From: an uncultured virus (IMG/VR IMGVR_UViG_3300037466_002099)
Lineage: Duplodnaviria > Heunggongvirae > Uroviricota > Caudoviricetes
Strand: one strand, 5' to 3'
Length of the DNA: 32,071 bases
IMG/VR virus record: IMGVR_UViG_3300037466_002099
Part shown: positions 1 to 21,224 of the stretch, in pieces
Position numbering within the stretch: position 1 is the stretch's first letter
Layout: each line of letters opens with the position of its first letter
Program-made: the position numbers and the translations under genes
The notes under the pieces: generated by a model
Told to the model about the DNA's origin: nothing
The model's input: only the letters and a program-made list of their open reading frames with translations
Database searches by the model: none

Positions 1-1
1 C

Positions 2-3000
2 AAGCTGGGCGTTGCCAGCGGCACCGCGCTCGAGCCGTCGTGCGCAACCGGCGTCTTCTTGCATACTGCGCCGGCCGGCTTCAAGGTCACCGGCGTCGAG
101 CTGGATCCGACCTCAGCCAAGTGCGCCGAGGTGCTGCACGGCGACCGCCACGAAATCATCAACGCCAGCCTGGAACGCTTCGCCACGCAAGACGGCGATC
201 GCCAGTTCGACGTGGTGATCGGCAACGTACCGTTCGGCCTGCGCGGCTCGCTGCTCAAGGACGACAAGCCGACGCTGAAGACCGCCGAGGGCTATTTCCT
301 CGATACCGCGCTCGACAAGACCCGCCCGGGCGGCGTGGTGGCGCTGATTGTGCCGACAGGCGTCATGGATGCCAAGTCGCAGCGCGGCCTGCGCGAGCGG
401 CTGCTGCGAAAAGGTGAATTCCTGGGCGCGGTCCGCATGCCCAACACGGCATTCGAGCACTCCCATACCGAGGTGACGACCGATATCGTCTTTTTCCGCA
501 AGCGGGCCGATGACGTGGCCGGCGCGCTGATGACGGTCAAACAGGGCACGCTCAAAGACCTCGGCGTGTGGGACGAGGACTATCTGTCCGGCGCTTATTT
601 CGAGACGCGCGGTGCCGATAGCATTTTCGGCACGATGGAGGCCGGCTGGCGAGCCAAGGCCGGCATCGGCCAGGACATTACCGTCTCCGGCTCCATGCGC
701 GGCGTGCCGGAATCGATCGCCGCCTGGACGCCGGACGAGGTGACGGCCGCGACGCCAACGGTACCGGACATCCTCGGCAAGCTGGATGAGGCCGGAAAGA
801 AGCGAGCGCTCGGCGCCGCGCTGAAGAAGCCCTACGACACATCCAAGCCGGGTGACACCAAGGCAGTCGATGGCGTCACCTACATATTGCAGGGCAAGCC
901 GCCGCGCTGGCACCGTATCGACGAGTTCCTGCAAGACGCGGGCATTTCCGACGCGCAGCCGATCGCCGCCGAGATCGAACGCATGTTCAACGGCCAAGCC
1001 GTCGACCGCCCGGCGCTCGAGGCGGCCGTGCGCGCGTATGTCGAAAAGCACGGCATCCCGGGCAAGAACCCGAACCTGAACCTTGCCGCCTCGCAGGACA
1101 AGACGCTGTACCGCCTGATCGGTGCCGTCAATCCGGACGGCACGATATCGGACGCGGTTGCTGGGCGCGGCGCGCGCAAGGTCGAGGGCTCGCTGGATAC
1201 GGCGGCCGTATCGCTGTCGCTCGAGCGCGATTCCGGCACGTTCTCGGTGGCCGAGCTCGCCGACCGCATCGGCAAGGATGTCGAGGAGGTCGAAGATACG
1301 CTCTTCGCCTCTCCGGCCTATGCCTATGCCGGGTCCGGCCAGTGGACCACGATGGACAATTACCTGACCGGCGAGCTGTGGCCGAAGCTGGACGCGGTGA
1401 AGGCGGAGGTGGCGCGCGGCGACCTGCGCGACGGGCTGGCCGAGAAATATGCGATGCAGGCCGCCAAGCTGGAAGAGACGATCGACCCGAAGTCGCTCGA
1501 AGATGTCGAGGTCATGCTGAACTCGGCATTCGTGCCGACCGACATCCTTGCAGCCTACTTCAACGAGCGGAAAGCCGCGTCGGACAACGACTGGGTGCGC
1601 AAGCTGCCGGACGTGAAAATCACGTTCAACGGCGGCGTCTATACCGTCGAGGGCGGAAATCAGCACGGCGAGATGAGGTTGCTCGACAAGTACCTGAACC
1701 GCACCGGCGTCAAGAAAGACGACATGCCGCAGATCGAGCAGATGAACGCCGATTTCAAGGCGTGGCTGCTGTCGTCGCGGTACCGCGATCAGGTCGAAGA
1801 ACTCTACAACCGCAAATTCCGGGGCTTCCGCCAGCGCGATTTCTCGAATGCGGCGATCGCCATCCCGGGCATGAATACCGAAGGGCTGAAGGATTACCAA
1901 TATGGCGGTCTGCGCTGGGCGCTGGCTGCCGGCAAGGGCATCATCGCCGCCGACGTGGGTCTGGGCAAAACCGTGCGCGGCCTGATGCTGGCGCGCATGG
2001 CGAAGATCAACGGCCAGTCCAAGCGGCCGACGTTCGTCGTGCCCAAGTCCGTGCTCGCCAACTGGGTTGCCGAGGCCGACAAGTGGTTCCCGGGCTCGCG
2101 CGTGCTGGTCATCGGCGAGACGTACACCAAGGACAAGGACGGCAATCTGAAGTCCAAGCCCGACACGGCCGCCGAGCGGAACCGCAAATACCACGAGATG
2201 ACGCAGAACGATTACGATTTCGTCTTCATCTCGCAGCCGGCTTTCAATGATCTCGACCTCGACCCGATCACCAAGGGCCAGTACGTCAACGATGATTTTT
2301 GGGTGCAGCGCGGCGATAAGCTGGGCAACGCCGGCGACAAGCGGCTGAACAAGGTCCGCGAAGCCTATAAACAGGCCATCGCCGACCGCGAATTCCAGAA
2401 GCGCACCGACGCGATCTACTTCAACGACCTGGGCATCGACATGCTGCTGGTCGACGAGGGGCACGCCTTCAAGAACCTGTATGCCGCCCGGGCGCGCTTC
2501 GGCGAGTCGCCCAAGTTTCTCGGCGGCCAGGGTCTATCGAACCGCGCTCTCGATATGAACCTGAAAACTCGTTGGGTGCGCGAGCAGAACAGCGGCAACG
2601 GCATCTATATGATGACCGCGACGCCGACGAAAAACAGTCCGCTCGAAATCTACTCGATGCTGTCGCACATCGCGCCGGAAGCCTTCGAGCGCATCGGCAT
2701 CCGCAACAGCGAAGAATTCCTTGACCGCTTCTGCGAGTTCGCCAACGACAAGATTCTCGGCACCGACGGCACCATTCAGGACGCCTTGGTCACCGTCGGC
2801 TTCAAGAACCTGGGCGAGCTGCGCGAGATCATGAAGCGCTTCATCGATCGCAAGACGGCGGCCGACGTGGGGCTGGTGCTGCCGACGCGCAACGATCAGA
2901 TGCACATGATCGACATGACCGACGAGCAGAAGGCAGTCTATTCCGACCTGCGTGAGCAGATGGCCGAGCTGGCGACGAAAAAGGACGCTACCGGCGACGC

Positions 3001-5257
3001 GCATATCTTCTCCATCATGGACAAGATGGCGAAGGCGGCGATGGACCTCGAGCTGCTGGACGCCAAGACCTACGCCGGCGCCAAGAGCCCGAAGTATGCC
3101 AAGGCCGCCGTCAACATCGCAGCCGGGGCCAAGGATGGCGGGCAGGTCGTTTTTGCCGAGTCCGTCGCCTCGCATGAGAAAATTGCCGCTGCCCTGGTGG
3201 CGGCCGGCATTCCGCGCGACCAGATCGCCATCATCAACGCGCAGGCCGCCGAGTCCTCGGCCAAGCGCCAGAACATCTCCGACGCCTTCAACTCCGGCAA
3301 GATTAAGGTCGTTATCGGCAACAAGACGATGGAGGAGGGCATCAACCTCCAAAAAGCGACGACCGATATCCATCACCTCGACCTGCCGTGGGAACCGGCG
3401 TCGATGCAGCAGCGCAACGGGCGCGGTCTGCGCCAGGGCAATATCAACGAGGCCGTCCGCATCCATACCTACATCACCAAGGGTTCGTTCGACGGCTACC
3501 GCTACCAGTCCATGATGGCGAAAAAGGATTGGCAAGACCTGCTGTGGAACGGCGGCGATCGCGTGGACAACATGGCGCGCGAAGGCAAATTCGACCGCTC
3601 CGACCTCTTGATCATGATGAGCGCGGATCCGGAAGCCGAGCGCGCCAAGTTCGAAGCCGACAAGGCGGCCGCGCAGGAGCGCCACGACGCCGAGCAGCGC
3701 CGGTCCGCCGCGTCCGAGTTCGTCCGCTTCCAAGTCATGAAGCGCAGCTACCGCGACCTGCAGAACAAAAAAACACAGTCGGCCGAGCGGCTGCGGGCGA
3801 AGATCGAACGCGCCAAGACGTTGTTGTCGAACAACAAGTATTTTTCCGCCAAGGGCGCGCTCGACAGCGATCAGCCGGTCGTCATCCATCCGGATACCGG
3901 CTTGGCGCTGCAGCGCGGCGTCGGCCTGGACGTGACCGAGCACGACGGCACGGCCGGAAAATGGGTGGTGACGGACGTGAACCCGCTGTCGGGCGATGTG
4001 TCGATGCGGCGTTATGGCGAGCTTGGCAAGGGCGGCCGGGCTATTACCGTGCCGATGACCGAGCTGTCGCACGGCGTGTCAGCCTTCCCGTACAAGGCTG
4101 ACGAGGAAGAGGCGGAGGTGGCGAAGCAATTCGCCGCTGATGCCGAGGGCAAGGTCGCAAAGATCGAGAAGGTGAGCGACCTGCGCGACATTCCGCAGAG
4201 CATCATCGCGGCGAACTATGCCGGACTACAATCCCGGCTGAAGGAAGCCGAGAAGGGATACCGGCATGGCCGCGCTTACGGCGCCCGGCTGGCAATGATC
4301 GGGCCTGATGGCAAGGCCGTGCTCGGCGGCCAGTATGGCGTTGGCGACAAACTCGATACGCACGACATCATGTTGCCTACGCCGGAGCATAAAGAACAGG
4401 CGATCCAGGCATACATCGATACGGAGCGGGAAAAAGAACTGGCGCGAGTCAGCGAGTACCGCCAGGGCAGGCGCGGCCGATCTGGCGATTTCGTCTACAC
4501 TCTACGGAACACGTACCCGACCGGCACCGAGGACAGGACGAATCCGTGGGGCGATGCCGGCGTGCATGTGTTCGGCGAGGGCTTCAAAAAAGAAGCGCAC
4601 GACCGTTTCGAACACGAACAGCGCGACCGTGCCAAGGCGGCGAAGGATCTGGCCGGCACAATCGACCATCTGGTGCCGACGGCGGACATTGCTCAGCACA
4701 CCGGAGCCAAGTGGCCGTCCAAATCGCTAGCTATGGTATATGCCCGGGCCAAGCGCGACGGCTTGCTGGATAAGCCGGTAGGCGACTTCCTGTCGGCGGT
4801 GACGATGCACTCGATGGCGCTGGTCCGCCGTGACGGCTATGGCGGCTCTACTGTCACGTCGCCGTCAAAAGAGCCCCTGTCCGAGGTGCTGCCGAAGTTG
4901 GCGAAACAGTCCGGCCATGCCGATCTGGCGGCGGCGATGATCGTTGCGACGCCGGGAACGACGCCAGAGCAAAAGTTCCGGCAACTGCTCGACCTCGGGG
5001 AAAAGGCCAACGTCGGCACGCCGGGCCTGTCCAGCATCACGCAACACACATATCCGCCGGCGGTGCTCAACGCCATGCATCACTTGTCGTCCAAGCACAG
5101 CGCCGATACTTTCTTCGACAAGAAAGTTTCAGAGGTGGCATCGCGGCACTCCGGTAGTTACAGCCGTGACGTTGACGAAGTGTTCGGTGGTAGAAACCAA
5201 CATGTCACCTTGCGCGAGCTGCTGGCTGGCGCGTCCTCGACCAAGGAGGCAGCATGA
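2..5257 (+). CDS. DarB-like N6-adenine DNA methyltransferase / SNF2-family helicase fusion, 5'-partial (>1750 aa)
   Basis: Frame is open from base 2 (KLGVASGTALEPSCATGVFLH), so the true start lies outside the window. MTase motif I LEPSCATG and motif IV VIGNVPFG. Helicase motifs ADVGLGKT, LVDEGH, MTATP, EEGINLQ, QRNGRGLRQG. Architecture matches P1 DarB-type proteins. Confidence 0.9.
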   Translation, partial: KLGVASGTALEPSCATGVFLHTAPAGFKVTGVELDPTSAKCAEVLHGDRHEIINASLERFATQDGDRQFDVVIGNVPFGLRGSLLKDDKPTLKTAEGYFLDTALDKTRPGGVVALIVPTGVMDAKSQRGLRERLLRKGEFLGAVRMPNTAFEHSHTEVTTDIVFFRKRADDVAGALMTVKQGTLKDLGVWDEDYLSGAYFETRGADSIFGTMEAGWRAKAGIGQDITVSGSMRGVPESIAAWTPDEVTAATPTVPDILGKLDEAGKKRALGAALKKPYDTSKPGDTKAVDGVTYILQGKPPRWHRIDEFLQDAGISDAQPIAAEIERMFNGQAVDRPALEAAVRAYVEKHGIPGKNPNLNLAASQDKTLYRLIGAVNPDGTISDAVAGRGARKVEGSLDTAAVSLSLERDSGTFSVAELADRIGKDVEEVEDTLFASPAYAYAGSGQWTTMDNYLTGELWPKLDAVKAEVARGDLRDGLAEKYAMQAAKLEETIDPKSLEDVEVMLNSAFVPTDILAAYFNERKAASDNDWVRKLPDVKITFNGGVYTVEGGNQHGEMRLLDKYLNRTGVKKDDMPQIEQMNADFKAWLLSSRYRDQVEELYNRKFRGFRQRDFSNAAIAIPGMNTEGLKDYQYGGLRWALAAGKGIIAADVGLGKTVRGLMLARMAKINGQSKRPTFVVPKSVLANWVAEADKWFPGSRVLVIGETYTKDKDGNLKSKPDTAAERNRKYHEMTQNDYDFVFISQPAFNDLDLDPITKGQYVNDDFWVQRGDKLGNAGDKRLNKVREAYKQAIADREFQKRTDAIYFNDLGIDMLLVDEGHAFKNLYAARARFGESPKFLGGQGLSNRALDMNLKTRWVREQNSGNGIYMMTATPTKNSPLEIYSMLSHIAPEAFERIGIRNSEEFLDRFCEFANDKILGTDGTIQDALVTVGFKNLGELREIMKRFIDRKTAADVGLVLPTRNDQMHMIDMTDEQKAVYSDLREQMAELATKKDATGDAHIFSIMDKMAKAAMDLELLDAKTYAGAKSPKYAKAAVNIAAGAKDGGQVVFAESVASHEKIAAALVAAGIPRDQIAIINAQAAESSAKRQNISDAFNSGKIKVVIGNKTMEEGINLQKATTDIHHLDLPWEPASMQQRNGRGLRQGNINEAVRIHTYITKGSFDGYRYQSMMAKKDWQDLLWNGGDRVDNMAREGKFDRSDLLIMMSADPEAERAKFEADKAAAQERHDAEQRRSAASEFVRFQVMKRSYRDLQNKKTQSAERLRAKIERAKTLLSNNKYFSAKGALDSDQPVVIHPDTGLALQRGVGLDVTEHDGTAGKWVVTDVNPLSGDVSMRRYGELGKGGRAITVPMTELSHGVSAFPYKADEEEAEVAKQFAADAEGKVAKIEKVSDLRDIPQSIIAANYAGLQSRLKEAEKGYRHGRAYGARLAMIGPDGKAVLGGQYGVGDKLDTHDIMLPTPEHKEQAIQAYIDTEREKELARVSEYRQGRRGRSGDFVYTLRNTYPTGTEDRTNPWGDAGVHVFGEGFKKEAHDRFEHEQRDRAKAAKDLAGTIDHLVPTADIAQHTGAKWPSKSLAMVYARAKRDGLLDKPVGDFLSAVTMHSMALVRRDGYGGSTVTSPSKEPLSEVLPKLAKQSGHADLAAAMIVATPGTTPEQKFRQLLDLGEKANVGTPGLSSITQHTYPPAVLNAMHHLSSKHSADTFFDKKVSEVASRHSGSYSRDVDEVFGGRNQHVTLRELLAGASSTKEAA

Positions 5258-5580
5258 TCGACCCGAAACAGCTCGCCGCGAGCACACTGCAGCTTTTGCA
5301 GGCAGACCCGCGCAACTATCGCAACTTCGGCGTCTACTGGTTTTTGATCAAGGCGCTGCTGAAGCACTATTACACGAAAGACAACCTATACCTGCTGGGC
5401 GACTACGTGGACCAGTCCGTGATTGACCGGATGCCGGTCCACGCGAGCCTTCAGGAAGCGCTCGAGGCGGCGGTCGAGGCGTACCAGATCAACGCCAGCT
5501 ATGGCATGAATGCAACGGAATTCACTGACCCGGAGGGCGAAACCTTCACCCTGACCGACGCGGACGCCGGCGGCCTGTAA
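5254..5580 (+). CDS. Hypothetical protein (108 aa), translationally coupled to the DarB-like gene
   Basis: ATGA start/stop overlap at 5254-5257, RBS AAGGAGG upstream, followed by a terminator. Confidence 0.8.
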   Translation: MIDPKQLAASTLQLLQADPRNYRNFGVYWFLIKALLKHYYTKDNLYLLGDYVDQSVIDRMPVHASLQEALEAAVEAYQINASYGMNATEFTDPEGETFTLTDADAGGL

Positions 5581-5602
5581 CCTGCCTGTCTGCTACCTTA
5601 AG

Positions 5603-5625
5603 AGCCGCCTTCGGGCGGCTTTTTT
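5603..5625 (+). terminator. Rho-independent terminator
   Basis: AGCCGCC-TTCG-GGCGGCT stem-loop followed by a T run. Confidence 0.9.
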
Positions 5626-5643
5626 GCTTTGGTGGCAACATTT

Positions 5644-5883
5644 TGTAACCGTGGTTTCGGATGTGATTTTCTAAGTCATTGATTTTAAACGTGTAACCAG
5701 AAACCAGAAACTTCGTGGAAGACATAAATATACACACATATACCCATATACCCCCATCCCCTACCTCACATAGTATCTATATATATAAATATTGGTTACA
5801 AGGTATATTTATATATATAAGTGATTGATTTTAAAGTGAAACCAAAATGAAACCGGCTGTAACCGGCGGCAGTTTCAGGTTAC
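5644..5883. other. AT-rich non-coding element with two IHF consensus sites, GWAACC repeats and a 15-bp inverted repeat (candidate origin or packaging site)
   Basis: TAAGTSATTGATTTTAAA at 5672-5689 and 5818-5835 (reverse strand fits WATCAANNNNTTR). TGTAACC/TGAAACC at 5644, 5692, 5837, 5848, 5858; inverted GGTTAC at 5794 and 5878. Inverted repeat 5778-5792 / 5805-5819. Confidence 0.6.
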
Positions 5884-5899
5884 GCCGCCGCGTGTTGCC

Positions 5900-5915
5900 G
5901 TCGTGACCCTAGACT
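5900..5915 (+). promoter_or_regulatory. Putative phage late promoter (GTCGTGAC-CC-TAGACT)
   Basis: Copy of the motif repeated at transcription-unit starts; ATG at 5923 follows 7 nt after the -10-like hexamer. Confidence 0.75.
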
Positions 5916-5922
5916 CGGGGTT

Positions 5923-8900
5923 ATGACCAAAATTCTGTTCCTTAAAGCTGCCAGCATTCCGCCAGGAGCCCGCTGGATTACGGTCCACGCCGGGGGAAAT
6001 AAGGATGCCAAGGGTCAGCCGGTGCTGATCCAGCCAAACCCTGATGGCTCCGCTCATGTGATAGGCGGCGCAGGGGGTGCTCTCAACTATCTTAAGCTCC
6101 GTGCCGTCCGCTCCGAAGACGACTACAAGCGCGAGGCCGAGCAACGCCGCAAGGACAAGGCCGAGAAGCGCAAGGAGCAGCGCGCCGCCGACAAAGAGGC
6201 CGGCATCTACGAATCCAAGGCCAAGGCCAAAGAGAATCTGCGGCTGCAGCAGCAGGCGCACGAAAAGGAATTCATCCGCACCGTCGCGCAATCGATGGGC
6301 TGGGAGCCCAAGAGCCTGGAATTTCCCGAGCAGGATTACGCGCACCTGTCGGAAACCGCGCTCAGCAAGGTTGCAACGAAGCATCACCGCGAGCTACTGA
6401 GCCGCGCGCTGGATGCCGTCGAGATGCAGCGTCAACGGCTGGTGACCGACGCGGCCGCGCGCATGGAAGCCGGCATCGGCGAAATCCCGCTCGACGCCAA
6501 GGGCGCCGATACGCTGTCGGTCGAGGATATCGCGCCGGTGGCGCCGGCCAGCGGCGGGCTCGGTTTCCAGGCTGACTACAAAAACCGGGCGGAAGCGGCC
6601 GGGCTGTCGGAAGACGAGCTCAAGCGCGAGGCCGACGCGGCGCGCGCTGCCAAGCTGTCGCAGATGACCGACGCGCAGCGCCGGGCGGCCGTCACGCGCG
6701 GCGAGACCGCGAAGATGGTTCGCCAGGAGCTCCAAAACATCCGCGAGCCGATCGTCTCCGATGCCAAGGCGCAGCTCGTCGAGGCCAAAAAGGCAACCGA
6801 GCTCCTGAAGGCGCAAAAGCGGCTGCGGCAAATCCAGAAGAAGGCGCGCGACTTCAACGCCGAAATCGACAAGTCGGCCGCCGAGCCCAAGGCATTCGTG
6901 CTCGAGTACACCGCCGACCCGGACACCGACGCCAAGGTGGCCGAGGACATTGCCGGTGACCTGCGTACGATGAAGACGCAAGCTTTCCTGTCCGAGTTCA
7001 AGCGGCTGGCTGGCGAGCGGCCGGAGGAGACGCTGGGCAAGCACCTGGGCATCGGCGCCTACAACTCGATCAATTCCCTGGCGTTGGCCGTCGGCGGCGA
7101 GGCGCTGGTCGACCGCTCCGTTGTCGATGTGCTGGGCATCGCCGGCGCCGCGCAAGTGCTGGCCCGCCGGATCCATACCGACCTGCCGGATGATGTCGAG
7201 CGCATCACCGACGGCATGCAGGACTTCCATCTGCACCATTACATGCAGGCGAGCGAGGAGGCGCTGTCCGAGGCGCGCGACCTGATGGACGCGGCCAAGG
7301 AAATCGAGCTGGGCGAAGCGGCGACGGGCTCGGACCTGCAGTCGGCGCAGGAGCTCAACGCCAAGCGCCGGCGCGCGGTGAATGACGCGCAGAAGACGCT
7401 CGGGCAGGCACTCGGAGAGATGGAAGCGAACGCGGCAATTTTGGTCTCGCTGAAGCAGGGAAAAAAGGACAAGTTTCAGGTCTCGCTGGGCAAGATCAGC
7501 GCCGAGGATGCCATCCGCCAAGTTCGCGCGATCGGCCTGCAGCGCGGCGACTACACCATCGAGAACGTCGCCGGCGACACTTTCCTGACCGTCAACGGCA
7601 CCGGCCTGGACCGGCTCGCCAAGCCCGTCAACCGCGCCGATATCGAGCAGGTCAAGCGCAACCTCGATATCATCAACGGACGCCATGACGAGGACGGCTG
7701 GCTGCCGCTGGGCGTGGCGAACCGGCCGGATCTGGCGATGGACGTGAAGCCGGGCGTGGCGCCACGGCTGGCCGAGCCCTTCGCGCCCGGCGACGACCTC
7801 GAGCAGTCCTTGCGCGACTACATCGGCGGCCGCGCGGCCGACGGCGATGCGCCGGGCGATATCGTGGCTGATATCCAGTCGGCGGACTTCTTCCAAAAAG
7901 TCGGCTGGGAGCGATCGGAAGCGTACCGGCAGGCGTTGAACGCCGTCGCGCCGCTGAAGGACCAAGACGGAAAGATGCAGCGCGCCGAGGCGCTGGCTGA
8001 GCATTTCGACAAGTTGGCCGACCAGTTCGTGGCGAACCGCTACGGCGGCGAACGCTCGACCCTGAATCGGCAGAAATTCGCCGTCGATCAGAAATCCGTG
8101 GATGCGTTGCACCGCGCGCTGACCGAGACCCCGGAGGGCACAGCCGCCTACAAGCAGATCGGCGAGCTGGGGCCGCACGACCAGCGCGCGCTGCGCGAGT
8201 TCTTCTACAAGAACGTGGCGAAGGAAAGCCCGGACGCGGCCAAGCTGCGCGCCGAGCTCGAGGCGACCGAGCAGAACGAGCCGGAGCGCGAAACGACCGA
8301 CATGTTCGGAGAGGCGACGACCAATCCGGAATGGGCGGAGTGGAAAACCAGGCGCGACGAGCTGGCCGGCAAGGTCGGTGCCGCGTCCCTGACTTGGGGC
8401 AAGTACGTCGATACCATGCGCGGCAACGAAAAAGCCTACGAGGCCGTGCAGGATATCATCCGCTCGCGCGTGGCGAAATCGTTCGTCGACGCGCACAACA
8501 AGCTGAGCCCGGGCGCACCGCTGAAACTGGGCAAGGCGGTCGTGCGCAACAACCTGAACCACTTGGACGCGACCGACCCGGCGGCGCGCGAGGAGCGCAT
8601 GCAGAAAGAGCGCGAGCTGGTCGACAGCCTGCGCGAGCGCGTGCAAGGCCGGTATGCCTCGGGCAGCGTCGGCGACAAGCTGGACGCGGCGCGCGATCGG
8701 CAGGAAGCCTTCGAGCAGGCGCAGATGGGCTTCTTCGCCAACGAGGAGCCGGCCGCCGAGGCGACCGAGCGCACCCTGGCTGGCGACGAGCGGCACACAC
8801 TCGGCCATGAAGCCGAGCGCCAGATCGCCGGCATGATGGGTGTCGTCGGCAAGAACTTCCGGCCCGGTCAGCCGCTCCGTCTGTGGAATCCGGCCATGAG

Positions 8901-10452
8901 CGGCGGCAAGAACGCCGCCCGGCAACGGCTGGTGAAGCTGGTCGACGCCAACAAGCGCGTCGTCGCCGCCTTCGGTACCGGGTCCGGCAAGTCGCTGCTG
9001 CAGCTCGCCTCCTTTACGCATCTGCACCAGCAGGGCAAGGCCAAGCGCGGCTTGTTCCTCGTGCCGTCGATCGTGCAGGGGCAGTTCTCCGGCGAGGCGC
9101 TGCGCTACCTCGAGCCCGGCAAGTTCAACTGGCATATCGAGCCCGGTGCCAGCCGCGAGGAGCGGATTTCCGCCTACAAGAACCCAGAGCACCATTTCTG
9201 CGTGATGACGCACCAGTCGTTCCGCGACGACATGATGCACCTGGGCGCCAAGCATGCCGGCATCGCCGAGTCCGAGATGTCCGACCGACTGAACGCCATG
9301 ACGCCGGCCGAGCGCAAGGACTGGATGAAAGGCGTCTGTGAGCGCGAGGGCATCAACTTCGACTACCTGACTGTGGACGAGAGCCAGTACACACTGAACC
9401 GCGCCGGCAAGGAAAATTCCGGGCTGGCGAATGTGGTCGACGCGCTGTCCGCGCATACGCCGTACTACCTGACGGCTTCGGGCGACCCGGTGAAAAATGA
9501 CGCCTCCGAGGTCTATGACCTGATGCGCAAGATGGATCCGGACCGCTACGCCGACCGCGCCGCGTTCATGCGCCGCTACGGCGCCGATACCCTGGCGTCC
9601 AAGGACGCACTGAAGCGCGAGATGGCGCGCTACGTCTATCCGAGCCGCATCGACCCGGATGTGACTGCAAACCGCCGCGCCGAGACGGTCGAATTGTCGG
9701 ACGGGCAAAAATCGGCCCTGGCCGAGCTGGACCGCCATTTCAGCAATGCGCGGTTGTCGCGCATGCAGGGCAAGGTAGATGTCGAGGCCATGAAGGCGAT
9801 CTCGCCGAGCTCGTTCGCCGACGTGCCGGAGGACAAGCATGAGGCCGTCGCCAAGGACTTGCAGGCCAATCTCGGCATCCTGAAGTCGTCGGCGATCGCC
9901 CGGGTGATCAATTCCCATCCGGACAATGCCAAGATTGAGCACCTGTCGAAGCTGGCCGGCGAGCGCAAGGGCAAGCCGGGCGTGGTTTTTGCGCACTCGC
10001 TCGAGGCAGTCAACCGCATCAAGGAGCGACTGGAAAAGGACGGGCACCGCGTCGTCGTGCTGACCGGCGCCGACAGCTCCAAAGAAAAGGAGAAGAAGCG
10101 GCTTGCCTTCAACCCGGAGCAGGGCGAGGCCAGCGCCGATATCCTGATCGCCTCGGACGCGGGGGCAACTGGGATGAACATCCAGCGTGGGCAATGGCTG
10201 GTGAACGTTGACACGCCGCAAACCGCGATGACGCATGCGCAGAGGGGAGGAAGGATATACAGGACTGGCCAAACTCGAAATGTCGAGCTCATCGATTTAG
10301 TCGCTGATCATCCGGAGGAGCGTAAAGCTCGCGACAGACTTCAAAAGAAATATGCATTGCGAGAATTGATGACAAGCCCAATGGAAGGGCTTGATGACAC
10401 TGGAATTTCCTGGTTTATCAAGCAACGACAGGAGGCACAAACTTTCGTGTAG
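5923..10452 (+). CDS. Large SNF2/SF2 helicase-like protein (1509 aa) with ~990-aa helical N-terminal region; candidate virion-packaged protein
   Basis: C-terminal motifs AFGTGSGKS (Walker A), TVDESQ (Walker B variant), ASGDP, SDAGATGMNIQ, QRGGRIYRTGQ. Codon usage matches the region. N-terminus MTKILFLKA. Confidence 0.85.
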   Translation: MTKILFLKAASIPPGARWITVHAGGNKDAKGQPVLIQPNPDGSAHVIGGAGGALNYLKLRAVRSEDDYKREAEQRRKDKAEKRKEQRAADKEAGIYESKAKAKENLRLQQQAHEKEFIRTVAQSMGWEPKSLEFPEQDYAHLSETALSKVATKHHRELLSRALDAVEMQRQRLVTDAAARMEAGIGEIPLDAKGADTLSVEDIAPVAPASGGLGFQADYKNRAEAAGLSEDELKREADAARAAKLSQMTDAQRRAAVTRGETAKMVRQELQNIREPIVSDAKAQLVEAKKATELLKAQKRLRQIQKKARDFNAEIDKSAAEPKAFVLEYTADPDTDAKVAEDIAGDLRTMKTQAFLSEFKRLAGERPEETLGKHLGIGAYNSINSLALAVGGEALVDRSVVDVLGIAGAAQVLARRIHTDLPDDVERITDGMQDFHLHHYMQASEEALSEARDLMDAAKEIELGEAATGSDLQSAQELNAKRRRAVNDAQKTLGQALGEMEANAAILVSLKQGKKDKFQVSLGKISAEDAIRQVRAIGLQRGDYTIENVAGDTFLTVNGTGLDRLAKPVNRADIEQVKRNLDIINGRHDEDGWLPLGVANRPDLAMDVKPGVAPRLAEPFAPGDDLEQSLRDYIGGRAADGDAPGDIVADIQSADFFQKVGWERSEAYRQALNAVAPLKDQDGKMQRAEALAEHFDKLADQFVANRYGGERSTLNRQKFAVDQKSVDALHRALTETPEGTAAYKQIGELGPHDQRALREFFYKNVAKESPDAAKLRAELEATEQNEPERETTDMFGEATTNPEWAEWKTRRDELAGKVGAASLTWGKYVDTMRGNEKAYEAVQDIIRSRVAKSFVDAHNKLSPGAPLKLGKAVVRNNLNHLDATDPAAREERMQKERELVDSLRERVQGRYASGSVGDKLDAARDRQEAFEQAQMGFFANEEPAAEATERTLAGDERHTLGHEAERQIAGMMGVVGKNFRPGQPLRLWNPAMSGGKNAARQRLVKLVDANKRVVAAFGTGSGKSLLQLASFTHLHQQGKAKRGLFLVPSIVQGQFSGEALRYLEPGKFNWHIEPGASREERISAYKNPEHHFCVMTHQSFRDDMMHLGAKHAGIAESEMSDRLNAMTPAERKDWMKGVCEREGINFDYLTVDESQYTLNRAGKENSGLANVVDALSAHTPYYLTASGDPVKNDASEVYDLMRKMDPDRYADRAAFMRRYGADTLASKDALKREMARYVYPSRIDPDVTANRRAETVELSDGQKSALAELDRHFSNARLSRMQGKVDVEAMKAISPSSFADVPEDKHEAVAKDLQANLGILKSSAIARVINSHPDNAKIEHLSKLAGERKGKPGVVFAHSLEAVNRIKERLEKDGHRVVVLTGADSSKEKEKKRLAFNPEQGEASADILIASDAGATGMNIQRGQWLVNVDTPQTAMTHAQRGGRIYRTGQTRNVELIDLVADHPEERKARDRLQKKYALRELMTSPMEGLDDTGISWFIKQRQEAQTFV

Positions 10453-11269
10453 TGAGGCGCTTCCTTTTCGGTTCTGTCGAGAGCGCTTCTTCCGGCGTCA
10501 TTCCTTTAGCAAGGCGATACTGAATGGTCGCTTTGCTGAGTCCTGTTGCGCGAGCCCAACCGGCAAGCGTTAACGATTGGCCAAATGCGGAGACTTTGAA
10601 GTTGTCTCGCCGATTGTTTGCTTGCTCATATTTCGTCGCCCATCTACAATTTTCAGGAGAGTACCCCTTGGTGTTGTCCCTCCTATCTATCGACATGTCT
10701 GATGGCGGCTCTCCCATATCTGCCAAGAAATTTTCGAATGTGTGCCATCGTTCACAGACATTTATTCCGCGACCGGCATACGCAGAATAGGATTTGTGGT
10801 TAGGATCATAGCAGCGCTGCATCATGCAGCACCAGATATTATGTACTCGTTTCCCTGTCATTCCATGGCGACGGTTGAGTGGCCTCGCGTTTTTTGCTGC
10901 CACTTCCCTATTCAGACATCCGCACGATTTTGTGTTGCCTGATGTAAGTGCACCGTAATGAACCAGCTTTTCGGTTCCGCAGTCGCACTTGCAATTCCAT
11001 CTGGACTTAGCGCTCGTGCCGTAACCCGAATTCGGTCCACGAGACAACGCCACGAGTCGGCCGAACCTCTTCCCGGTAATATCTTTTGCCCTAAACCGAA
11101 GGCAACCGCACGATTTCGTCGTTCCTTCCTTCAAATGATGTGCTGCCGCGACGGTCGTGGCACCACAATCACAGACACAATGCCACTTGGCGATTTCGCC
11201 GACTTCGGACCAGCGGTGGGTGACAGTCAAGATGCCAAAGCGCTTACCGGAAAGGTCGTCAAGTTTCAT
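10418..11269 (-). CDS. Free-standing HNH homing endonuclease-like protein (283 aa)
   Basis: Two N-terminal repeats GKRFG.L...W.C.CDCG...TKSCGC, HNH-like core SIDRRDNTKGYSPENCRWAT..EQANN, C-terminal HTH-like segment. Lower GC than flanks; convergent 35-nt overlap with the helicase gene. Confidence 0.85.
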   Translation of the reverse strand: MKLDDLSGKRFGILTVTHRWSEVGEIAKWHCVCDCGATTVAAAHHLKEGTTKSCGCLRFRAKDITGKRFGRLVALSRGPNSGYGTSAKSRWNCKCDCGTEKLVHYGALTSGNTKSCGCLNREVAAKNARPLNRRHGMTGKRVHNIWCCMMQRCYDPNHKSYSAYAGRGINVCERWHTFENFLADMGEPPSDMSIDRRDNTKGYSPENCRWATKYEQANNRRDNFKVSAFGQSLTLAGWARATGLSKATIQYRLAKGMTPEEALSTEPKRKRLTTRKFVPPVVA

Positions 11270-11298
11270 AAGTTGTGGAATTCACCGATAACATCCAT

Positions 11299-11307
11299 AT
11301 TGTATCA
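11299..11307 (-). promoter_or_regulatory. Candidate extended -10 promoter for the HNH gene (TGaTACAAT)
   Basis: Minus strand reads TGATACAAT about 30 nt upstream of the ATG at 11269. Confidence 0.4.
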
Positions 11308-11312
11308 TTTTC

Positions 11313-11341
11313 TTGGCGCAATGCTCTTTTTTGATTATAAT
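11313..11341 (+). promoter_or_regulatory. Sigma70-type promoter (TTGGCG-N17-TATAAT)
   Basis: Perfect -10 at 11336-11341, 17-nt spacer, partial -35 at 11313-11318; ATG at 11348 lies 6 nt downstream. Confidence 0.65.
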
Positions 11342-11347
11342 GGCCGC

Positions 11348-11557
11348 ATGAAGATCACCTCTCTCGCTCTCGCTGCCTCTACCTTACTCGCCGGCCCTGG
11401 GCACGCGCTCGCCGCCGACCCTGGCTCCTGCTACGGCATCGGCGACGCCGACGCGCGCACCTACTGCCTTGCCAAAGCGCGCAACGATGCGAACATGTGC
11501 TATGCCATCCAGCGCGCGGAGCTGCGCTCGGCTTGTCTGTCGGAGGTGCGAAAGTGA
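11348..11557 (+). CDS. Small secreted four-cysteine protein (69 aa)
   Basis: MKITSLALAASTLLAGPGHALA is a Sec signal peptide ending in A-L-A. The mature part has two CY.I...D/E.R..CL half-repeats. Start reassigned from the ORF-track 10958. Confidence 0.75.
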   Translation: MKITSLALAASTLLAGPGHALAADPGSCYGIGDADARTYCLAKARNDANMCYAIQRAELRSACLSEVRK

Positions 11558-11817
11558 TTGACGGCCACATGGATACGGTCCGTCGCCAGCTCGGCGAGCT
11601 CGGCGCGATGTCCGACCAGACCGAGGAAATGGAGCGGCAAATCCTGTCGCGCGCCGAAGAGGGACTTGCCAAGATCGACGCCGAGATCGACAAGGCTCGC
11701 GCCGATGCGCTGGCCGGCGGCGAGGAAGCCAAGAGCCGCTATACCTCGATGGTCAAGGAGCGGGGCGTGCTGCAGCAGGTCATCGCCCGGGCGAGGGAAG
11801 CGCTGAATCCGACCTGA
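11554..11817 (+). CDS. Hypothetical coiled-coil protein (87 aa)
   Basis: GTG at 11554 overlaps the previous TGA, RBS GGAGG at 11542-11546, helical composition, followed by a terminator. Confidence 0.65.
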   Translation: MIDGHMDTVRRQLGELGAMSDQTEEMERQILSRAEEGLAKIDAEIDKARADALAGGEEAKSRYTSMVKERGVLQQVIARAREALNPT

Positions 11818-11841
11818 TAACCGCCCAGCCAAGAAACAAAT

Positions 11842-11864
11842 AGCCGCCTCCGGGCGGCTTTTTT
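11842..11864 (+). terminator. Rho-independent terminator
   Basis: AGCCGCC-TCCG-GGCGGCT plus T run. Confidence 0.9.
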
Positions 11865-11888
11865 ATTGTCCGCATGCGCGCACGCAAA

Positions 11889-11904
11889 GTCGTGACGCCA
11901 TGAT
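11889..11904 (+). promoter_or_regulatory. Putative phage late promoter (GTCGTGAC-GC-CATGAT)
   Basis: Motif copy just after a terminator; ATG at 11911 is 6 nt downstream. Confidence 0.75.
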
Positions 11905-11910
11905 GGCGGC

Positions 11911-12801
11911 ATGGAAGAAGCCCAGCTACTTGCTGCCGTACCCGACTTTTTGAGCATTGAATCGATGTTCAAGGCGACGCCTGCCGAGGAGGCGGGCGCG
12001 CGCTTTATCTATTTCGAGGCAAGCAACGAGAAGCTGGACCAGCAGAACGAGCGGGTCATGGCGAAGGCGCTCGAGGATAGCGCCTCGCATTACCTGAAGT
12101 TCGGCAACGTCGATATCGACCATTACACGATGGTCGGCACGCGCATGGGCATCCCCAACCCGATGTCCTACGAAATCGGCCGCCCGGTGGCGGCGCGCAT
12201 CGAGAACAAGCGCACCTTCGTCAAGGCCCAGCTTTACCAGGGCGCGTCGGAGCTCGCCAAGAACGCCAATATGGTGTGGGAGTCGATGACGCAGATCAGC
12301 CCGCCGGCGCGCTGGTATCCGTCTGTGGGTGGCGCGGTGCTCGCCAAGAGCATTCAGGTCGACCCCGAGACCAAGAACAAGATCGCCGTTATCGAGAAAG
12401 TGCGCTGGACGAACGTCGCGCTGTCTCGCACGCCGGTCAATCCCAACCTGCCGACGGCGCAAACCATCCCGTTCGGTGCCTTGGCGAAGTGCTGGACGGC
12501 GCACGGCCTGGATTTCACCAAGGCGCTCGAGGCCGGCTACGGGACCGATTCCGCCGCGCTGGCTGGCGGCGCCGCGATGCGCAAGCAATCGCTCGATCGC
12601 CGCATTCATAGTTATTTCGATTTCCGCGAGCGCATTGCCAAGGCTCTCCGCAGTGGCGACGCGGGAAAGAATCCTGGCGTGAAGCAAATCGCTGCTTACG
12701 CCGCAAACCAATTCGGGCTCTCGCTGGATGAAGCAGCCGAATACACCGAGCGCTTCATGCGCGACCTGAAAACAAGTCTTAACCAACGGAGTAAGTCATG
12801 A
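11911..12801 (+). CDS. Prohead (capsid maturation) protease
   Basis: HK97/herpes-type protease pattern: EAS.E.LDQQNE, NVDIDH (His), PSVGG (Ser), NVALSRTPVNP. Lies upstream of scaffold and capsid genes. Confidence 0.8.
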   Translation: MEEAQLLAAVPDFLSIESMFKATPAEEAGARFIYFEASNEKLDQQNERVMAKALEDSASHYLKFGNVDIDHYTMVGTRMGIPNPMSYEIGRPVAARIENKRTFVKAQLYQGASELAKNANMVWESMTQISPPARWYPSVGGAVLAKSIQVDPETKNKIAVIEKVRWTNVALSRTPVNPNLPTAQTIPFGALAKCWTAHGLDFTKALEAGYGTDSAALAGGAAMRKQSLDRRIHSYFDFRERIAKALRSGDAGKNPGVKQIAAYAANQFGLSLDEAAEYTERFMRDLKTSLNQRSKS

Positions 12802-13448
12802 ATGATTTCGAAAAACTCGTCGGCGAGCTGGAAGCTCTGAACGCCGACACCGAAGCCATGACCAAAGCACTCCCGGCGGATGACGGCAAGGATGATGACA
12901 AGATCCAAGCCGCCGCTGCGGAAGGCGGCGACGGCGATGCAACCAATGACGGCGGCGAAGGCGGCGATGATGCCGACGGCGCGGCCGATGGCGACGACAA
13001 GCCGATGGCGAAGTCGATGAACGTCACGCTGGAAGACGGCACCACCGTCGAGGCGCTGGACGGCACCGAGCTCATCAAGTCGCTGACCGCCCGTCTCGAC
13101 AAGTCCGCCGAGGGCCAAAGCCAGATGGCGAAGGCGCTCGAGGCCGTCGGCGCCGTGATCAAATCGCAGGGCGAGCTGATCAAGTCGCTCAACGAAAAGC
13201 TGACCAAGCTGGCCGGTGCAGGTCGCGGCCGCAAAGCAGTTCTGTCGGTGGCGGAAAAGCCCGCTCCCGGCGAAACGATGACGAAATCCGAGCCCGAAGG
13301 GCTGTCCGGCGAGCAGTTCATGGCGAAAGCGATGGATGCCATGAAAGCCGGCCGCATTAGCGGAACGGATGTCGCCGTCGCAGAAGCGAGCCTGAACCGT
13401 GGTGTCGTGGTTCCGGCTCATATCGTCCAGCGCGTCCTGCAGTCGTAA
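12798..13448 (+). CDS. Putative capsid scaffolding protein (216 aa)
   Basis: Between protease and capsid genes; acidic low-complexity linker, coiled-coil segments and nine hydrophobic-x-K-[A/S] sites. Confidence 0.65.
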   Translation: MNDFEKLVGELEALNADTEAMTKALPADDGKDDDKIQAAAAEGGDGDATNDGGEGGDDADGAADGDDKPMAKSMNVTLEDGTTVEALDGTELIKSLTARLDKSAEGQSQMAKALEAVGAVIKSQGELIKSLNEKLTKLAGAGRGRKAVLSVAEKPAPGETMTKSEPEGLSGEQFMAKAMDAMKAGRISGTDVAVAEASLNRGVVVPAHIVQRVLQS

Positions 13449-13484
13449 GGCGCCGGTTTTATTCACATCGAGGGAAAATCGATC

Positions 13485-14948
13485 ATGTATCCGAACATTC
13501 AACTTCCCAATATTGCCGGCGGCACTTCCACGACCGGCGAGTTGGGCGCCCAGCAGTTCGAAGAGCTGCAGAAGGCATTGACGACCGGCTATGGCACGGA
13601 CGTTTCGCAGTTGACCGGCGGCGGCGCTCTGCGCATCCAGTCGCTCGACAAGACCATGATGGCGACCATTCAGGAGAACAAGCACTTCCGCCTGTTCAAC
13701 GAACTCGCCAAGAACAGCGCCGGCGCGACCGTCGACGAATGGACCGAGCAGTCCGGCGTCGGTGGCTTCCTGGGCGGCTCGACCAACACCGAAACCGGCA
13801 ACATCGCGTCGGCTCAGGGTACCTACGCTCGCCGCGTCGGTCTGGTCAAGTACCTGATGACCCGCCGCGAAGTGTCTTTCGTCTCCACGCTGGGCAACAA
13901 CATCGCCAGCTCCGAGGCGATCGAGCAGCAGGCCGGTGCCAAGCAGCTCTTGACCGACGCCGAATACCTGTCGTTCTACGGTGATTCGACCGTGGTGCCG
14001 ACCGAGTTCGACGGCATCTACGCGCAGATCGTCGCCGGCGTGGCCGCAGGACAAGTCGACGGCGGCAACATCCTCGACGCGCAGGGCCAGTCCCTCGCCT
14101 CGGTCAATCTGGTGAACCAAGCCGCCTCGCAGATCAGCCGCCGCGACAACTTCGGCACTCCGACCCACCTCTTCATGTCTCAGTTGACGCAAGCCGACTT
14201 CGACACGGGTCTGGATCCGGCCTTCCGCGTGCCGCTGACCAACGTCCCGAACGGCGGTATCTCGCTCGGCTCGCCGGTGAAGGGCATCCGTACCTCGTGG
14301 GGTGACATCGCCACGATGCCGGACGTGTTCATCAATGACGGCGATCAGGACGTGCCGTTCGAGGTGACCTATCCCGCCCTGGCTACCGCCAACACCACGA
14401 TGAAGCCGACCCTGGCGATCGACGCTTCGGTGACCGACGCTTCGTCGCAGTTCGGTGCCGGCCAAGCGGGTAATTACTATTACCTCGTGACCGGCGTCAG
14501 CGCTGCCGGCCAGTCCGACGGCCGCATCACCGCGCAGACCGCCGTGGCTGCTGGCAAGAAGGTCGTTCTGACCATCACCGCGTCCGGTGGCGGCCAAGAA
14601 ACCGGCTACGCGATCTACCGCTCGCGTCTGAACGGCACCAACACGCCGTCCGACTTCCGTCTGGTGGCTCGCGTTGCCAAGGCCGGCGGCACCACGACCT
14701 ACACCGATTACAACCGCGACATCCCGGGCACCACCAAGGCATTCGTGCTGAACATGACCCCGGGCGATCAGGCGATCAACTGGCGTCAGCTCTTGCCGAT
14801 GCTGAAGTTCCCGCTGTACCCGACCGTCGCGGCCACGATTCCGTGGGCTCAGTTGATGTTTGGCTACCTGCGCATCACCAAGCGACGGCACCACGCCATC
14901 ATCAAGAACATCCTGCCCAACGGCGCAAAGTGGAAGCCGTTTAACTAA
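13485..14948 (+). CDS. Major capsid protein (487 aa), Herelleviridae-like, with a beta-sandwich insertion
   Basis: KALTTGYGTD...GALRIQSLD N-terminus and SFYGDS...EFDGI segment recall SPO1/Twort/A511-type capsid proteins. Strong codon bias, RBS, position after protease and scaffold. Confidence 0.88.
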   Translation: MYPNIQLPNIAGGTSTTGELGAQQFEELQKALTTGYGTDVSQLTGGGALRIQSLDKTMMATIQENKHFRLFNELAKNSAGATVDEWTEQSGVGGFLGGSTNTETGNIASAQGTYARRVGLVKYLMTRREVSFVSTLGNNIASSEAIEQQAGAKQLLTDAEYLSFYGDSTVVPTEFDGIYAQIVAGVAAGQVDGGNILDAQGQSLASVNLVNQAASQISRRDNFGTPTHLFMSQLTQADFDTGLDPAFRVPLTNVPNGGISLGSPVKGIRTSWGDIATMPDVFINDGDQDVPFEVTYPALATANTTMKPTLAIDASVTDASSQFGAGQAGNYYYLVTGVSAAGQSDGRITAQTAVAAGKKVVLTITASGGGQETGYAIYRSRLNGTNTPSDFRLVARVAKAGGTTTYTDYNRDIPGTTKAFVLNMTPGDQAINWRQLLPMLKFPLYPTVAATIPWAQLMFGYLRITKRRHHAIIKNILPNGAKWKPFN

Positions 14949-17439: not shown

Positions 17440-18299
17440 TGAGCGCCATTTCCTCATTTGCCGAATTCAAGCAGCTATGTCAGTCGAATAGCTATGGCGT
17501 GTTTTGCGTCGGCATGAATAACGGCTCGGTCAACAATAACGGACTGGGCTCAATTTTCGCACGCGAGCAGTACCAAAGCGGCACTGTCACGGCACCATCG
17601 ACAGCGGTCTCGTTGGATAGTACCCACGTTGCCGCGCTGCTGCAAAATCCCAAACTGCCGACAGGTCTTACCGGGAAACAGTTCTGGTTGTGCGAGTCGG
17701 AGTTTATTTACAACTGCGGCAACGTCGGCGCTCAGCGGTGCTCTGCGTTGCTGCTCGACCGCCTATGCCATCAAGGCGGTCTTTCTGGCACCGTGACGAC
17801 CGCGCAGACCACGAATTTGCCGACAGCCGCACTCCCTCGTTACACGTCTGGCGACGGCGTTCAGGCCGCCGTTGAGATATACAGCCAAATTGGCAGTACA
17901 TCGACGACGCTCACAATCAGTTATACGAATCAGGCTGGTGTATCGGGACAAGTATCTCAACCTATCGTCATTGGCGGATCGTCTAACAATTCTGTGGGCG
18001 TCATGCTGCCGATTCCGCTGGCAGATGGGGACACCGGCGTCCAGTCTGTTCAATCCGTTACGCTGGCAGGAAGCACCCTCACGGCAGGAAATTTCGGCAT
18101 AACATTGTTCAAGCGCCTCGCACTTTTGCCGCCACATACTGGCAACTTCGTAGAGCGCCAGGGATATCGAAACTATTTGTTCGGCGGCGGCGCCGTCGAA
18201 ATATTGCCGGGTGCGTGCCTGCAACTGGCGATCATCACCCCCGATAGCAACGCCGGCTACAAGACCTATCAGGGCTCGCTCAACATTGGGCAAAAATGA
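17439..18299 (+). CDS. Beta-rich virion protein, paralogue 2 (286 aa)
   Basis: TGATG overlap at 17437-17441 gives start MSAISSF, aligning with MTAFTDL of paralogue 1. Confidence 0.7.
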   Translation: MSAISSFAEFKQLCQSNSYGVFCVGMNNGSVNNNGLGSIFAREQYQSGTVTAPSTAVSLDSTHVAALLQNPKLPTGLTGKQFWLCESEFIYNCGNVGAQRCSALLLDRLCHQGGLSGTVTTAQTTNLPTAALPRYTSGDGVQAAVEIYSQIGSTSTTLTISYTNQAGVSGQVSQPIVIGGSSNNSVGVMLPIPLADGDTGVQSVQSVTLAGSTLTAGNFGITLFKRLALLPPHTGNFVERQGYRNYLFGGGAVEILPGACLQLAIITPDSNAGYKTYQGSLNIGQK

Positions 18300-19465: not shown

Positions 19466-19466
19466 C

Positions 19467-21212: not shown

Positions 21213-21224
21213 TAAAATTTGAGC

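Follow-up and report, generated by a model that had tools for sequence, protein, structure and literature searches.

What are two giant helicase genes doing ahead of the head genes of an uncultured tailed phage, and do they belong together? The question is raised by IMG/VR record IMGVR_UViG_3300037466_002099, a sequence of 32,071 nucleotides assigned to the Caudoviricetes and analysed here over its full length (henceforth the window). An earlier note, made from the letters alone, had described a methyltransferase-helicase fusion followed by a second helicase of 1509 amino acids, here called Hel2, and had proposed that both are injected with the DNA as one system resembling the Dar system of phage P1. 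The coordinates of its open reading frames (ORFs) were reproduced. Our analysis leads to a different view of the locus, in which Hel2 is a core gene of the head module and the fusion protein, a homologue of P1 DarB followed by a Ulx-like protein, belongs to an accessory cassette. We favour, with a probability of roughly 0.55, the reading that these are two separate kinds of head cargo, tagged with a short N-terminal leader, trimmed by the prohead protease and injected into the host.

A core helicase gene and an accessory DarB-Ulx cassette

The isolate closest to the window is Bordetella phage vB_BbrM_PHB04 (94,005 bp), with 81% nucleotide identity across 62% of positions 1–13500, and metagenome runs from soil and rhizosphere, apart from the possible source run, contain near-identical DNA; the source is best explained as a PHB04-like myovirus of roughly 94 kb. 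To this we added 98 related IMG/VR loci, of which seven second copies of the same contig and one containing only the C-terminus were set aside, leaving 90 contigs that fell into 67 clusters at 95% nucleotide identity. Among the 53 clusters with at least 9 kb of sequence upstream of Hel2, DarB and Ulx preceded it in 29 and DarB lay downstream in one; the other 23 had no DarB, and 12 of these show the portal gene within 10 kb. On the other side of Hel2, protease and capsid genes followed in 49 of the 50 clusters with at least 6 kb downstream, and the protease started within 1.5 kb of Hel2 in 41 of those clusters. Of 50,697 phage records, only those belonging to five phages or groups of phages yielded full-length relatives of Hel2, namely PHB04, Morganella phage Mecenats66 and the Thermus phages Lalka8/27a/27b, Cumys and phiMa. 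Mecenats66 and phiMa carry Hel2 and no DarB anywhere, and in the former the gene order runs portal, minor head protein, Hel2, small ORF, protease, scaffold-like protein and capsid; in Lalka27a, about 30 kb separate DarB from Hel2. Hel2 thus belongs to the core of the head module, and DarB-Ulx forms an accessory cassette. The earlier note's picture of tandem helicases directly in front of the head genes is right as to order and neighbourhood, but a Ulx-like gene lies between the two helicases, and an HNH endonuclease gene and a small ORF intervene before the protease.

The first protein is indeed a methyltransferase-helicase fusion, with Pfam matches to N6_Mtase, Eco57I, SNF2-rel_dom and Helicase_C, and two 'DarB-like' antirestriction profiles of the PHROG collection match it as well (phrog_11801 and phrog_10089, the latter at E 4e-109). 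Against P1 DarB, BLASTP returned an E-value of 1e-81 with 26% identity over 1200 aligned columns and a second segment at E 5e-31, the alignment being collinear from the methyltransferase through the end of the helicase, which upholds the Dar reading of this protein. The catalytic motifs are intact in the methyltransferase (LEPSCATG, NVPF) and, after a linker, in the SNF2 ATPase (GLGKT, DEGH, QQRNGRGLR). About 470 C-terminal residues without assigned function do not align with P1, and at the other end some 346 residues are absent from the window by comparison with the 2097-residue PHB04 equivalent, gp027. The start of the Ulx-like gene overlaps the DarB stop by ATGA; pairwise, its product resembles P1 Ulx weakly (12 of 22 residues identical), and P1 shows the identical darB-ulx order, adjoining its portal and protease genes. 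The earlier note had missed this gene, and the evidence for a Dar-type first protein is stronger than it knew because a Ulx homologue follows, as in P1. We regard homology of the pair to P1 DarB-Ulx as very probable. This half of the proposal is correct but not new, because the RefSeq entry of PHB04 already labels the equivalents 'DNA methyltransferase' and 'Ulx-like anti-restriction', and the authors who described the Thermus Lalka phages in 2024 put forward, in the accessible part of their article, packaging of the DarB and Ulx homologues of these phages as a hypothesis (PMC11437467). It does extend the pair to another capsid lineage, as the earlier note had held: the solved sequence relatives of the capsid protein at E ≤ 0.1 are three (Gp6.1, 9vel; 5lii; 9row), and P1 gp23 is not among them. 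In P1, as described in the available sections of two articles, Dar proteins are packaged and co-ejected with the DNA, Ulx and DdrB assist the localisation of DarB, and its 30 N-terminal residues are enough to target it to the capsid (PMC12810830, PMC9024508). By homology, the DarB-like protein would enter the procapsid with the help of Ulx, would be injected with the DNA, and its methyltransferase and SNF2 module would protect the genome in cis from type I restriction.

Hel2 is confirmed as a helicase, with Pfam matches above threshold to Helicase_C (clear), DEAD (26.3 against a cut-off of 26) and ResIII. The claim that both helicases belong to SNF2 is borderline for this one, because its SNF2-rel_dom score of 24.8 bits falls 0.1 bit short of the cut-off of 24.9. 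The best solved sequence relatives of its ATPase are RapA (E 4e-7), CHD1 and ISWI, and it resembles the DarB helicase only distantly, with 22% identity over about 530 residues (E 3e-4). Motif II (9370–9381) reads DESQ, not DEGH or DEAH, and does so in 110 of 119 close homologues, with wider relatives mostly retaining GH or AH. The Walker A and D-E motifs of the ATPase are conserved across the family; the motor is therefore under selection. In metagenomes the family is large: of the candidates that were scored, 734 proteins match at E ≤ 1e-5, and the N-terminal 990 residues alone match 434 clusters (50% identity) at E ≤ 1e-3. Our literature search turned up no account of Hel2 or of its leader, the original PHB04 paper and the supplements being outside its scope.

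The N-terminal 990 residues had been found unrecognisable by the earlier note, and they remain so. AlphaFold models of residues 1–990 and 515–990 reached confidence values (predicted local distance difference test, pLDDT) of 80.7 and 80.1, and neither matched anything in the PDB by Foldseek at E ≤ 1e-3; the 1–990 model had no match in BFVD, the ESM Atlas gave no usable match to the region, and the best VIA-align Z-scores (6.8 and 6.3) cover single helical hairpins only, below the level that the tool regards as meaningful for helical models. At the level of sequence, three separate segments searched against Pfam at E ≤ 5 returned nothing beyond two chance-level rows, and the region had no solved relative at E ≤ 1. 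Such absent matches do not prove a new fold. The predicted model places the strands of the small conserved beta module at residues 17–22, 31–38 and 44–49, and residues 1–10, modelled at pLDDT below 50, are predicted to be disordered. Two P1 proteins tried as relatives of this region, DdrB and DarA, were rejected, with hhalign probabilities of 0.4% and 0.2%.

Further clues to the role of Hel2 come from its fusions and neighbours. We scanned 22 long Hel2 homologues, a biased pick from 150 listed since they were chosen for length or N-terminal extension, and found an InPase domain (PF18823) N-terminal to the Hel2 region in seven, along with one LPD3, one ART-PolyVal and one DUF6884 domain. Between its portal and protease genes PHB04 encodes, besides gp030, a RelA_SpoT-domain protein (gp034), an HD hydrolase, a phosphatase, a stand-alone InPase (gp028, E 3e-45), DarB, Ulx and Hel2. 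Of the 11 clusters that lack DarB and in which InPase was seen, 8 have InPase at a distance of 0–1.1 kb before Hel2, so that the cassette sits between two genes that are fused elsewhere. Domains of this kind have been described as polyvalent-protein domains of the phage type, with the prediction that they are packaged and injected, and two SNF2-related helicase families have been noted in such proteins (Iyer et al. 2017, PMC5512222, in the parts available). The hallmark of the class, its domains combined in one protein or encoded side by side in a structural-gene context, is displayed by the Hel2 homologues and by the PHB04 interval alike, and we prefer to read Hel2 as a core cargo gene belonging to this class. 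Inteins were found in the ATPase of 4 of the 22 scanned homologues; intein-bearing homologues are P0143, P0169, P0180, P0223, P0074, P0091 and P0110, some of them with LAGLIDADG domains.

Candidate protease sites, leaders and presumed promoter elements

The earlier note had pointed out that the start of Hel2, MTKILFLKA, matches a K|[A/S] motif of the capsid and scaffold proteins (the bar marks the candidate cut). The motif is real, with strong enrichment in the scaffold-like protein and the protease. In the pattern [LMFIV]-x-K-[AS] it occurs at 9 sites in the scaffold-like protein, with 0.84 expected, and at 6 sites in the protease, with 1.0 expected; in neither case did any of 500 shuffles reach the observed number. 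The capsid protein has a candidate maturation site after residue 30 (K30|A, in ELQK|ALTTGYGTD), and the C-terminus of the protease repeats this capsid block as DFTK|ALEAGYGTD. PHB04, Mecenats66, phiMa and Lalka27a also have these sites in scaffold, protease and capsid, in a form particular to each phage; in the Thermus phages it is LAK|A. As a side observation, a longer block, K|AL..GYGTD...GG.A.R.QSLD, is common to protease (12514–12630) and capsid (13572–13650), where it immediately follows the K|A site; it is kept in the same four phages and may let the protease dock where the N-terminal arm of the capsid docks.

A hydrophobic stretch ending in K|A is also found at the start of several of the candidate cargo proteins. 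In PHB04, Hel2 begins MKPILFLK|A, the HD hydrolase VIVFLK|A, InPase VGAVVLLK|A and DarB MIILLTK|A, and the Hel2 of Mecenats66 begins MKRLMIK|A. With a strict definition of the leader ([ILVFM][ILVFM][ILVFMT]K[AS] within the first 14 residues), the four PHB04 proteins are the only ones among the 35 complete coding sequences of that locus to carry it. Each is encoded by one of the 12 genes that lie between portal and protease (Fisher p 0.009), and as a background the pattern occupies 0.21% of internal 14-residue windows. In the window itself one protein of 25, Hel2, has the strict leader. A looser form was present in 60 of 66 related loci for Hel2, in 31 of 33 for DarB and in 9 of 10 for the HD hydrolase, two cross-hits to DarB having been set aside. 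In the wider family, the RWITV core could be recognised in 124 of the 150 listed representatives (26, for the most part fragments, were left out), and the motif lay at most 16 residues before this core in 84 of the 124, compared with 6.3% of control windows from the same proteins. It was present in 49 of 78 homologues with N-terminal extensions, and in these it therefore stands at a domain junction. Lalka27a provides an example, since its Hel2 junction, PALLAK|AEV, follows an extension of about 80 residues. With the start taken as the Met that gives the published 2074 residues, the DarB N-terminus of the same phage is MDLVRLYQELLAK|AEQ, and both the Hel2 junction and this N-terminus match the scaffold, protease and capsid sites of Lalka27a itself. 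A short leader ending at the phage's own prohead-protease motif is, at the sequence level, common to several cargo candidates.

Two side observations concern these N-termini. The extra domain of about 80 residues in Lalka27a Hel2 (L003, 11767–12010) looks ChaB-like by eye. After the leader, DarB and the HD hydrolase share an N-terminal hairpin module of 29 columns, V.GY.RKDGT.V.PH (hhalign 97%, E 4e-11; L001, 10894–11040 and 7705–7830, as well as related loci), whose sequence suggests a portable N-terminal module. The Hel2 leader was tried as a homologue of this module and found no support in hhalign.

The promoter motif shared by Hel2 and the structural genes had not been spelled out in the earlier note, and we took it to be GTCGTGAC. 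Its claim is borne out: the element occurs 6 times in the window (5900, 11889, 15616, 19422, 22915 and 31936), always on the + strand, with 1.05 copies expected and none of 100 shuffles reaching six. Besides the two copies in Table 1, one lies 22 nt before an ATG at 22937. PHB04 has the element at corresponding positions, before portal, Hel2, protease and further genes, and in the related loci it was found upstream of portal in 14 of 14, of protease in 53 of 56, of Hel2 in 44 of 66, of gp030 in 23 of 39 and of DarB in 6 of 33, with none upstream of capsid in 54; in the 67 representative loci 217 copies were on the + strand and 8 on the - strand. We call it late by inference, because the same element precedes the portal and protease operons. 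With a terminator-like hairpin at 5600 and the promoter motif at 5900, Hel2 heads its own transcription unit. In locus L001 the element was seen at 4251, 17514, 17772, 22910, 29450 and 32736, and about half of the sites in the window and in L001 follow one layout (GTCGTGAC, 5–7 nt, an A/T-rich triplet as in caAT, tgAT or tcAT, and ATG at 22–23 nt) in which a Shine-Dalgarno sequence is not clearly seen; the late mRNAs may have little or no leader. A second repeat, TTGATTTTAAA, matched twice with 0.17 matches expected, and was rejected as a common promoter motif, having two copies only, both before Hel2. No Rfam family reached its gathering score in the spacer that holds these copies or elsewhere in the window.

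Proposed packaged cargo and its alternatives

How might these parts work? As we picture it, the GTCGTGAC promoters of the portal, gp030, Hel2 and protease operons would express both kinds of cargo late, with DarB, which seldom has a copy of its own, presumably read from one upstream. The leader, acting like the capsid-targeting sequence of T4, would bring each protein into the procapsid, the prohead protease would remove it, and the mature enzymes would leave with the DNA. Hel2, a DarB-independent core ATPase of the SF2/SNF2-like kind behind its 990-residue helical region, might next move along the incoming genome as an ATP-driven translocase of double-strand DNA and rid it of host proteins or nucleases, or assist its entry. 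What the sequences show is homology, gene order, motif statistics, fusions and conservation; packaging, cleavage and injection are inferred, as is the activity of Hel2. Packaging and trimming of Hel2 have somewhat better than even odds in our estimate, and any specific activity of Hel2 is put forward tentatively.

Several points weigh against this cargo reading. To our knowledge, most helicases encoded in phage genomes are not virion proteins, and our literature search yielded neither a virion proteome nor N-terminal sequences or expression data from phages that carry Hel2. Neither DarA nor DdrB, on which the loading of DarB depends in P1, turned up in PHROG scans of the window or in the four related isolates. 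The leader is short (5–8 residues), its K is followed by a residue other than A or S in about one third of the wider family, and InPase has the looser form in only 17 of 35 related loci; moreover, starts for the looser form were picked by nearness to the aligned start, a rule of thumb and a weak point. In the window the leader is seen on Hel2 alone, those of DarB, InPase and the HD hydrolase being known from relatives; the DarB leader is not visible here because the N-terminus of DarB is cut off. With hhalign, the N-terminus of Hel2 showed no homology to those of DarB and the HD hydrolase (probabilities of 1.4% and 19%). Conservation of the Hel2 leader may reflect common descent or a structural role and not cleavage, and conservation within one family is not independent evidence. 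The second scan for related loci covered the best 80 of 250 candidates and leans to relatives of at least 46% identity. Finally, the Hel2 of Lalka27a sits between tail and baseplate genes, not head genes.

The strongest alternative is that Hel2 never enters the virion and is a late DNA-processing helicase that clears or resolves concatemers for packaging, or serves late recombination, the K-A/S motif being part of its fold. The missing proteomic data and the placement in the Lalka27a tail module fit this view, as do the inteins, which are common in essential DNA-metabolism genes, and a match to other proteins too short to serve as proof. It has to reckon, however, with homologues of Hel2 fused to InPase, ART-PolyVal and LPD3, a class for which packaging and injection have been predicted (Iyer et al. 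2017, PMC5512222, as far as available), with a leader that recurs on three unrelated enzymes encoded nearby and on none of the remaining 31 PHB04 coding sequences examined, with the position of the motif at domain junctions in extended homologues, and with the predicted disorder of residues 1–10. We consider this alternative unlikely, though it is the one that survives best.

The earlier note's own proposal, which makes the DarB-like protein and Hel2 partners in a single Dar-like system against restriction that acts jointly on the injected DNA, could appeal to the adjacency of the two genes in the window and in the 29 clusters, to the kinship of their SF2 ATPases and to the leader found on both in relatives. 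Against it stand the 23 clusters, Mecenats66 and phiMa, which have Hel2 without DarB, the distance between the two genes in Lalka27a, their separate transcription units here, and the lack of likeness of Hel2 to P1 DdrB or DarA. Single-sequence searches of the four related isolate genomes covered DarA, DdrB and Hdf: DarA and DdrB matched none of them, and Hdf had one weak match (E 3e-4), distant from the head genes. None of the window ORFs matched DarA, Hdf, DdrA or DdrB in PHROG scans. A single joint system is improbable.

That the helical N-terminal region is chiefly a structural internal head or core protein, like P1 DarA and Hdf, with a secondary ATPase, is the least probable reading of all: it accords with the place of Hel2 before protease and capsid, with a mostly helical region free of enzymatic signature and with the tie of DarA and Hdf to head morphogenesis in P1 (PMC12810830, in the part available), but Hel2 has no sequence likeness to DarA, and the Walker A and D-E motifs kept throughout the family speak for a motor under selection.

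Neighbouring genes, known systems and significance

Table 1. Features of the window around Hel2 and the head genes
Feature	Positions	Strand	Remarks
DarB-like protein	2–5257	+	1751 amino acids; 5' end cut by window edge
Ulx-like protein	5254–5580	+	108 amino acids; phrog_1629 'Ulx-like anti-restriction', E 2e-20, residues 5–106
Terminator-like hairpin with T run	5600–5623	+	after the Ulx-like gene; ends the DarB-Ulx transcription unit
AT-rich spacer, about 280 nt	5624–5899		TATATA runs and two TTGATTTTAAA copies (5679, 5825); surrounding genome 63% GC
GTCGTGAC, presumed late-promoter element	5900–5907	+	23 nt before the Hel2 ATG
Hel2, SF2 helicase	5923–10452	+	1509 amino acids; begins MTKILFLKAAS
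Hel2 leader MTKILFLK	5923–5946	+	hydrophobic-x-K before Ala9; proposed capsid-targeting, protease-trimmed propeptide
Hel2 N-terminal region	5923–8892	+	990 amino acids, mostly helical; few invariant residues
Small conserved beta module	5962–6102	+	PGxRWITVHxxG...GxPVLI...VIGGAGGxLNxLxL; alignment of 42 sequences
Hel2 SF2 (SNF2-like) ATPase core	8893–10452	+	GSGKS, DESQ, QRGGRIYR; last ~520 residues
HNH homing endonuclease gene	10418–11269	-	phrog_374, E 4e-87
Small conserved coiled-coil ORF	11558–11806	+	between Hel2 and protease; equivalent of PHB04 gp023
Terminator-like hairpin	11842–11859	+	before the protease promoter
GTCGTGAC	11889–11896	+	22 nt before the protease ATG
Prohead protease	11911–12801	+	profile phrog_1028
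Scaffold-like acidic protein	12798–13448	+	named scaffold by position and composition only
Major capsid protein	13485–14948	+	profile phrog_752

The GC content of the window ranges from 53 to 67%, and its morphogenesis genes form a run on the + strand, from protease, scaffold-like and capsid genes through adaptor/fibre, sheath and tube-like genes to a lytic tail protein. The freestanding HNH gene between Hel2 and the protease sits in a low-GC patch (0.526), is convergent with the end of Hel2 (35-nt overlap at the stop) and has no counterpart at the corresponding place in PHB04; it is an insertion outside the cargo system. The small ORF that follows is 45% identical to PHB04 gp023 by tblastn, and gp023 is present in most related loci. 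Further downstream, a GIY-YIG homing endonuclease with a NUMOD-like tail (21219–22034, + strand) stands amid the structural genes. A listed ORF of 544 amino acids (18942–20576) overlaps the preceding gene (18296–19465), and a copy of GTCGTGAC at 19422 is followed by an in-frame ATG at 19467, two bases past the upstream stop. This suggests that the true gene is 19467–20576, encoding 369 amino acids, the same length as PHB04 gp017.

Among known systems, P1 DarB-Ulx is the nearest for the accessory cassette, with a collinear methyltransferase and SNF2 protein, a small Ulx next to it and portal and protease genes close by. It differs in its 26% identity, in its capsid lineage, in having DarA and DdrB, which were not detected in the relatives of the window, in a DarB N-terminus unlike the K|A/S-ending leader seen here, and in the cut of its capsid protein, E120|S121 (PMC9024508, available in part) as against the candidate K|A. 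The Thermus Lalka phages combine DarB and Ulx with Hel2 in one phage group, but their Hel2 homologue is annotated only as 'putative helicase', and the accessible part of that article reports no proteomics (PMC11437467). Polyvalent proteins share the DarB-type methylase-SNF2 dyad, InPase, RelA/SpoT, ART and LPD3 domains, the late context and the predicted injection. In the available account of that class the domains form one polypeptide cut by a zincin peptidase, whereas here they are mostly separate genes with leaders of their own, and the 990-residue region of Hel2 matches no Pfam LPD model; the words 'leader' and 'N-terminal signal' are absent from the text of PMC5512222.

RapA and other bacterial and eukaryotic SNF2 ATPases, the best solved relatives of the Hel2 core, differ in that only the C-terminal lobe aligns well, in the DESQ form of motif II and in the unrelated N-terminal region of Hel2. 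For the leader, the closest parallel is the T4 capsid-targeting sequence, whose end is formed by the motif of the T4 prohead protease and which is cleaved off. In T4 this sequence, about 10 N-terminal residues, directs internal proteins into the scaffold core (PMC9958956, available in part). Like IPII and IPIII of T4, the proteins described here would carry a short N-terminal tag, known in our case from sequence alone; they differ in the K|A/S form of the protease motif and in being large enzymes of 170–230 kDa.

What would this mean for these phages? It is possible, at well under even odds in our judgement, that a lineage-wide leader of three or four hydrophobic residues and K|A/S marks a kit of HD hydrolase, InPase, DarB and Hel2 for loading, trimming and injection, with Hel2 as an essential injected DNA motor that would assist genome entry or free the genome of host proteins. 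Such a lineage would span phages from those of soil proteobacteria to those of Thermus, and the logic of Hel2 might be analogous to that of the N4 virion RNA polymerase. Were the leader a true tag, cargo would become predictable from sequence across a large, mostly uncultured group of phages (434 clusters), and the leader would be a handle for loading foreign proteins into their capsids, as in T4 and P1. If a core SF2 motor does travel in the virion, the few enzymes on record as injected, among them DarB, T4 Alt and the N4 RNA polymerase, would be joined by one of a new kind, and the widespread InPase-helicase polyvalent proteins would gain a testable role.

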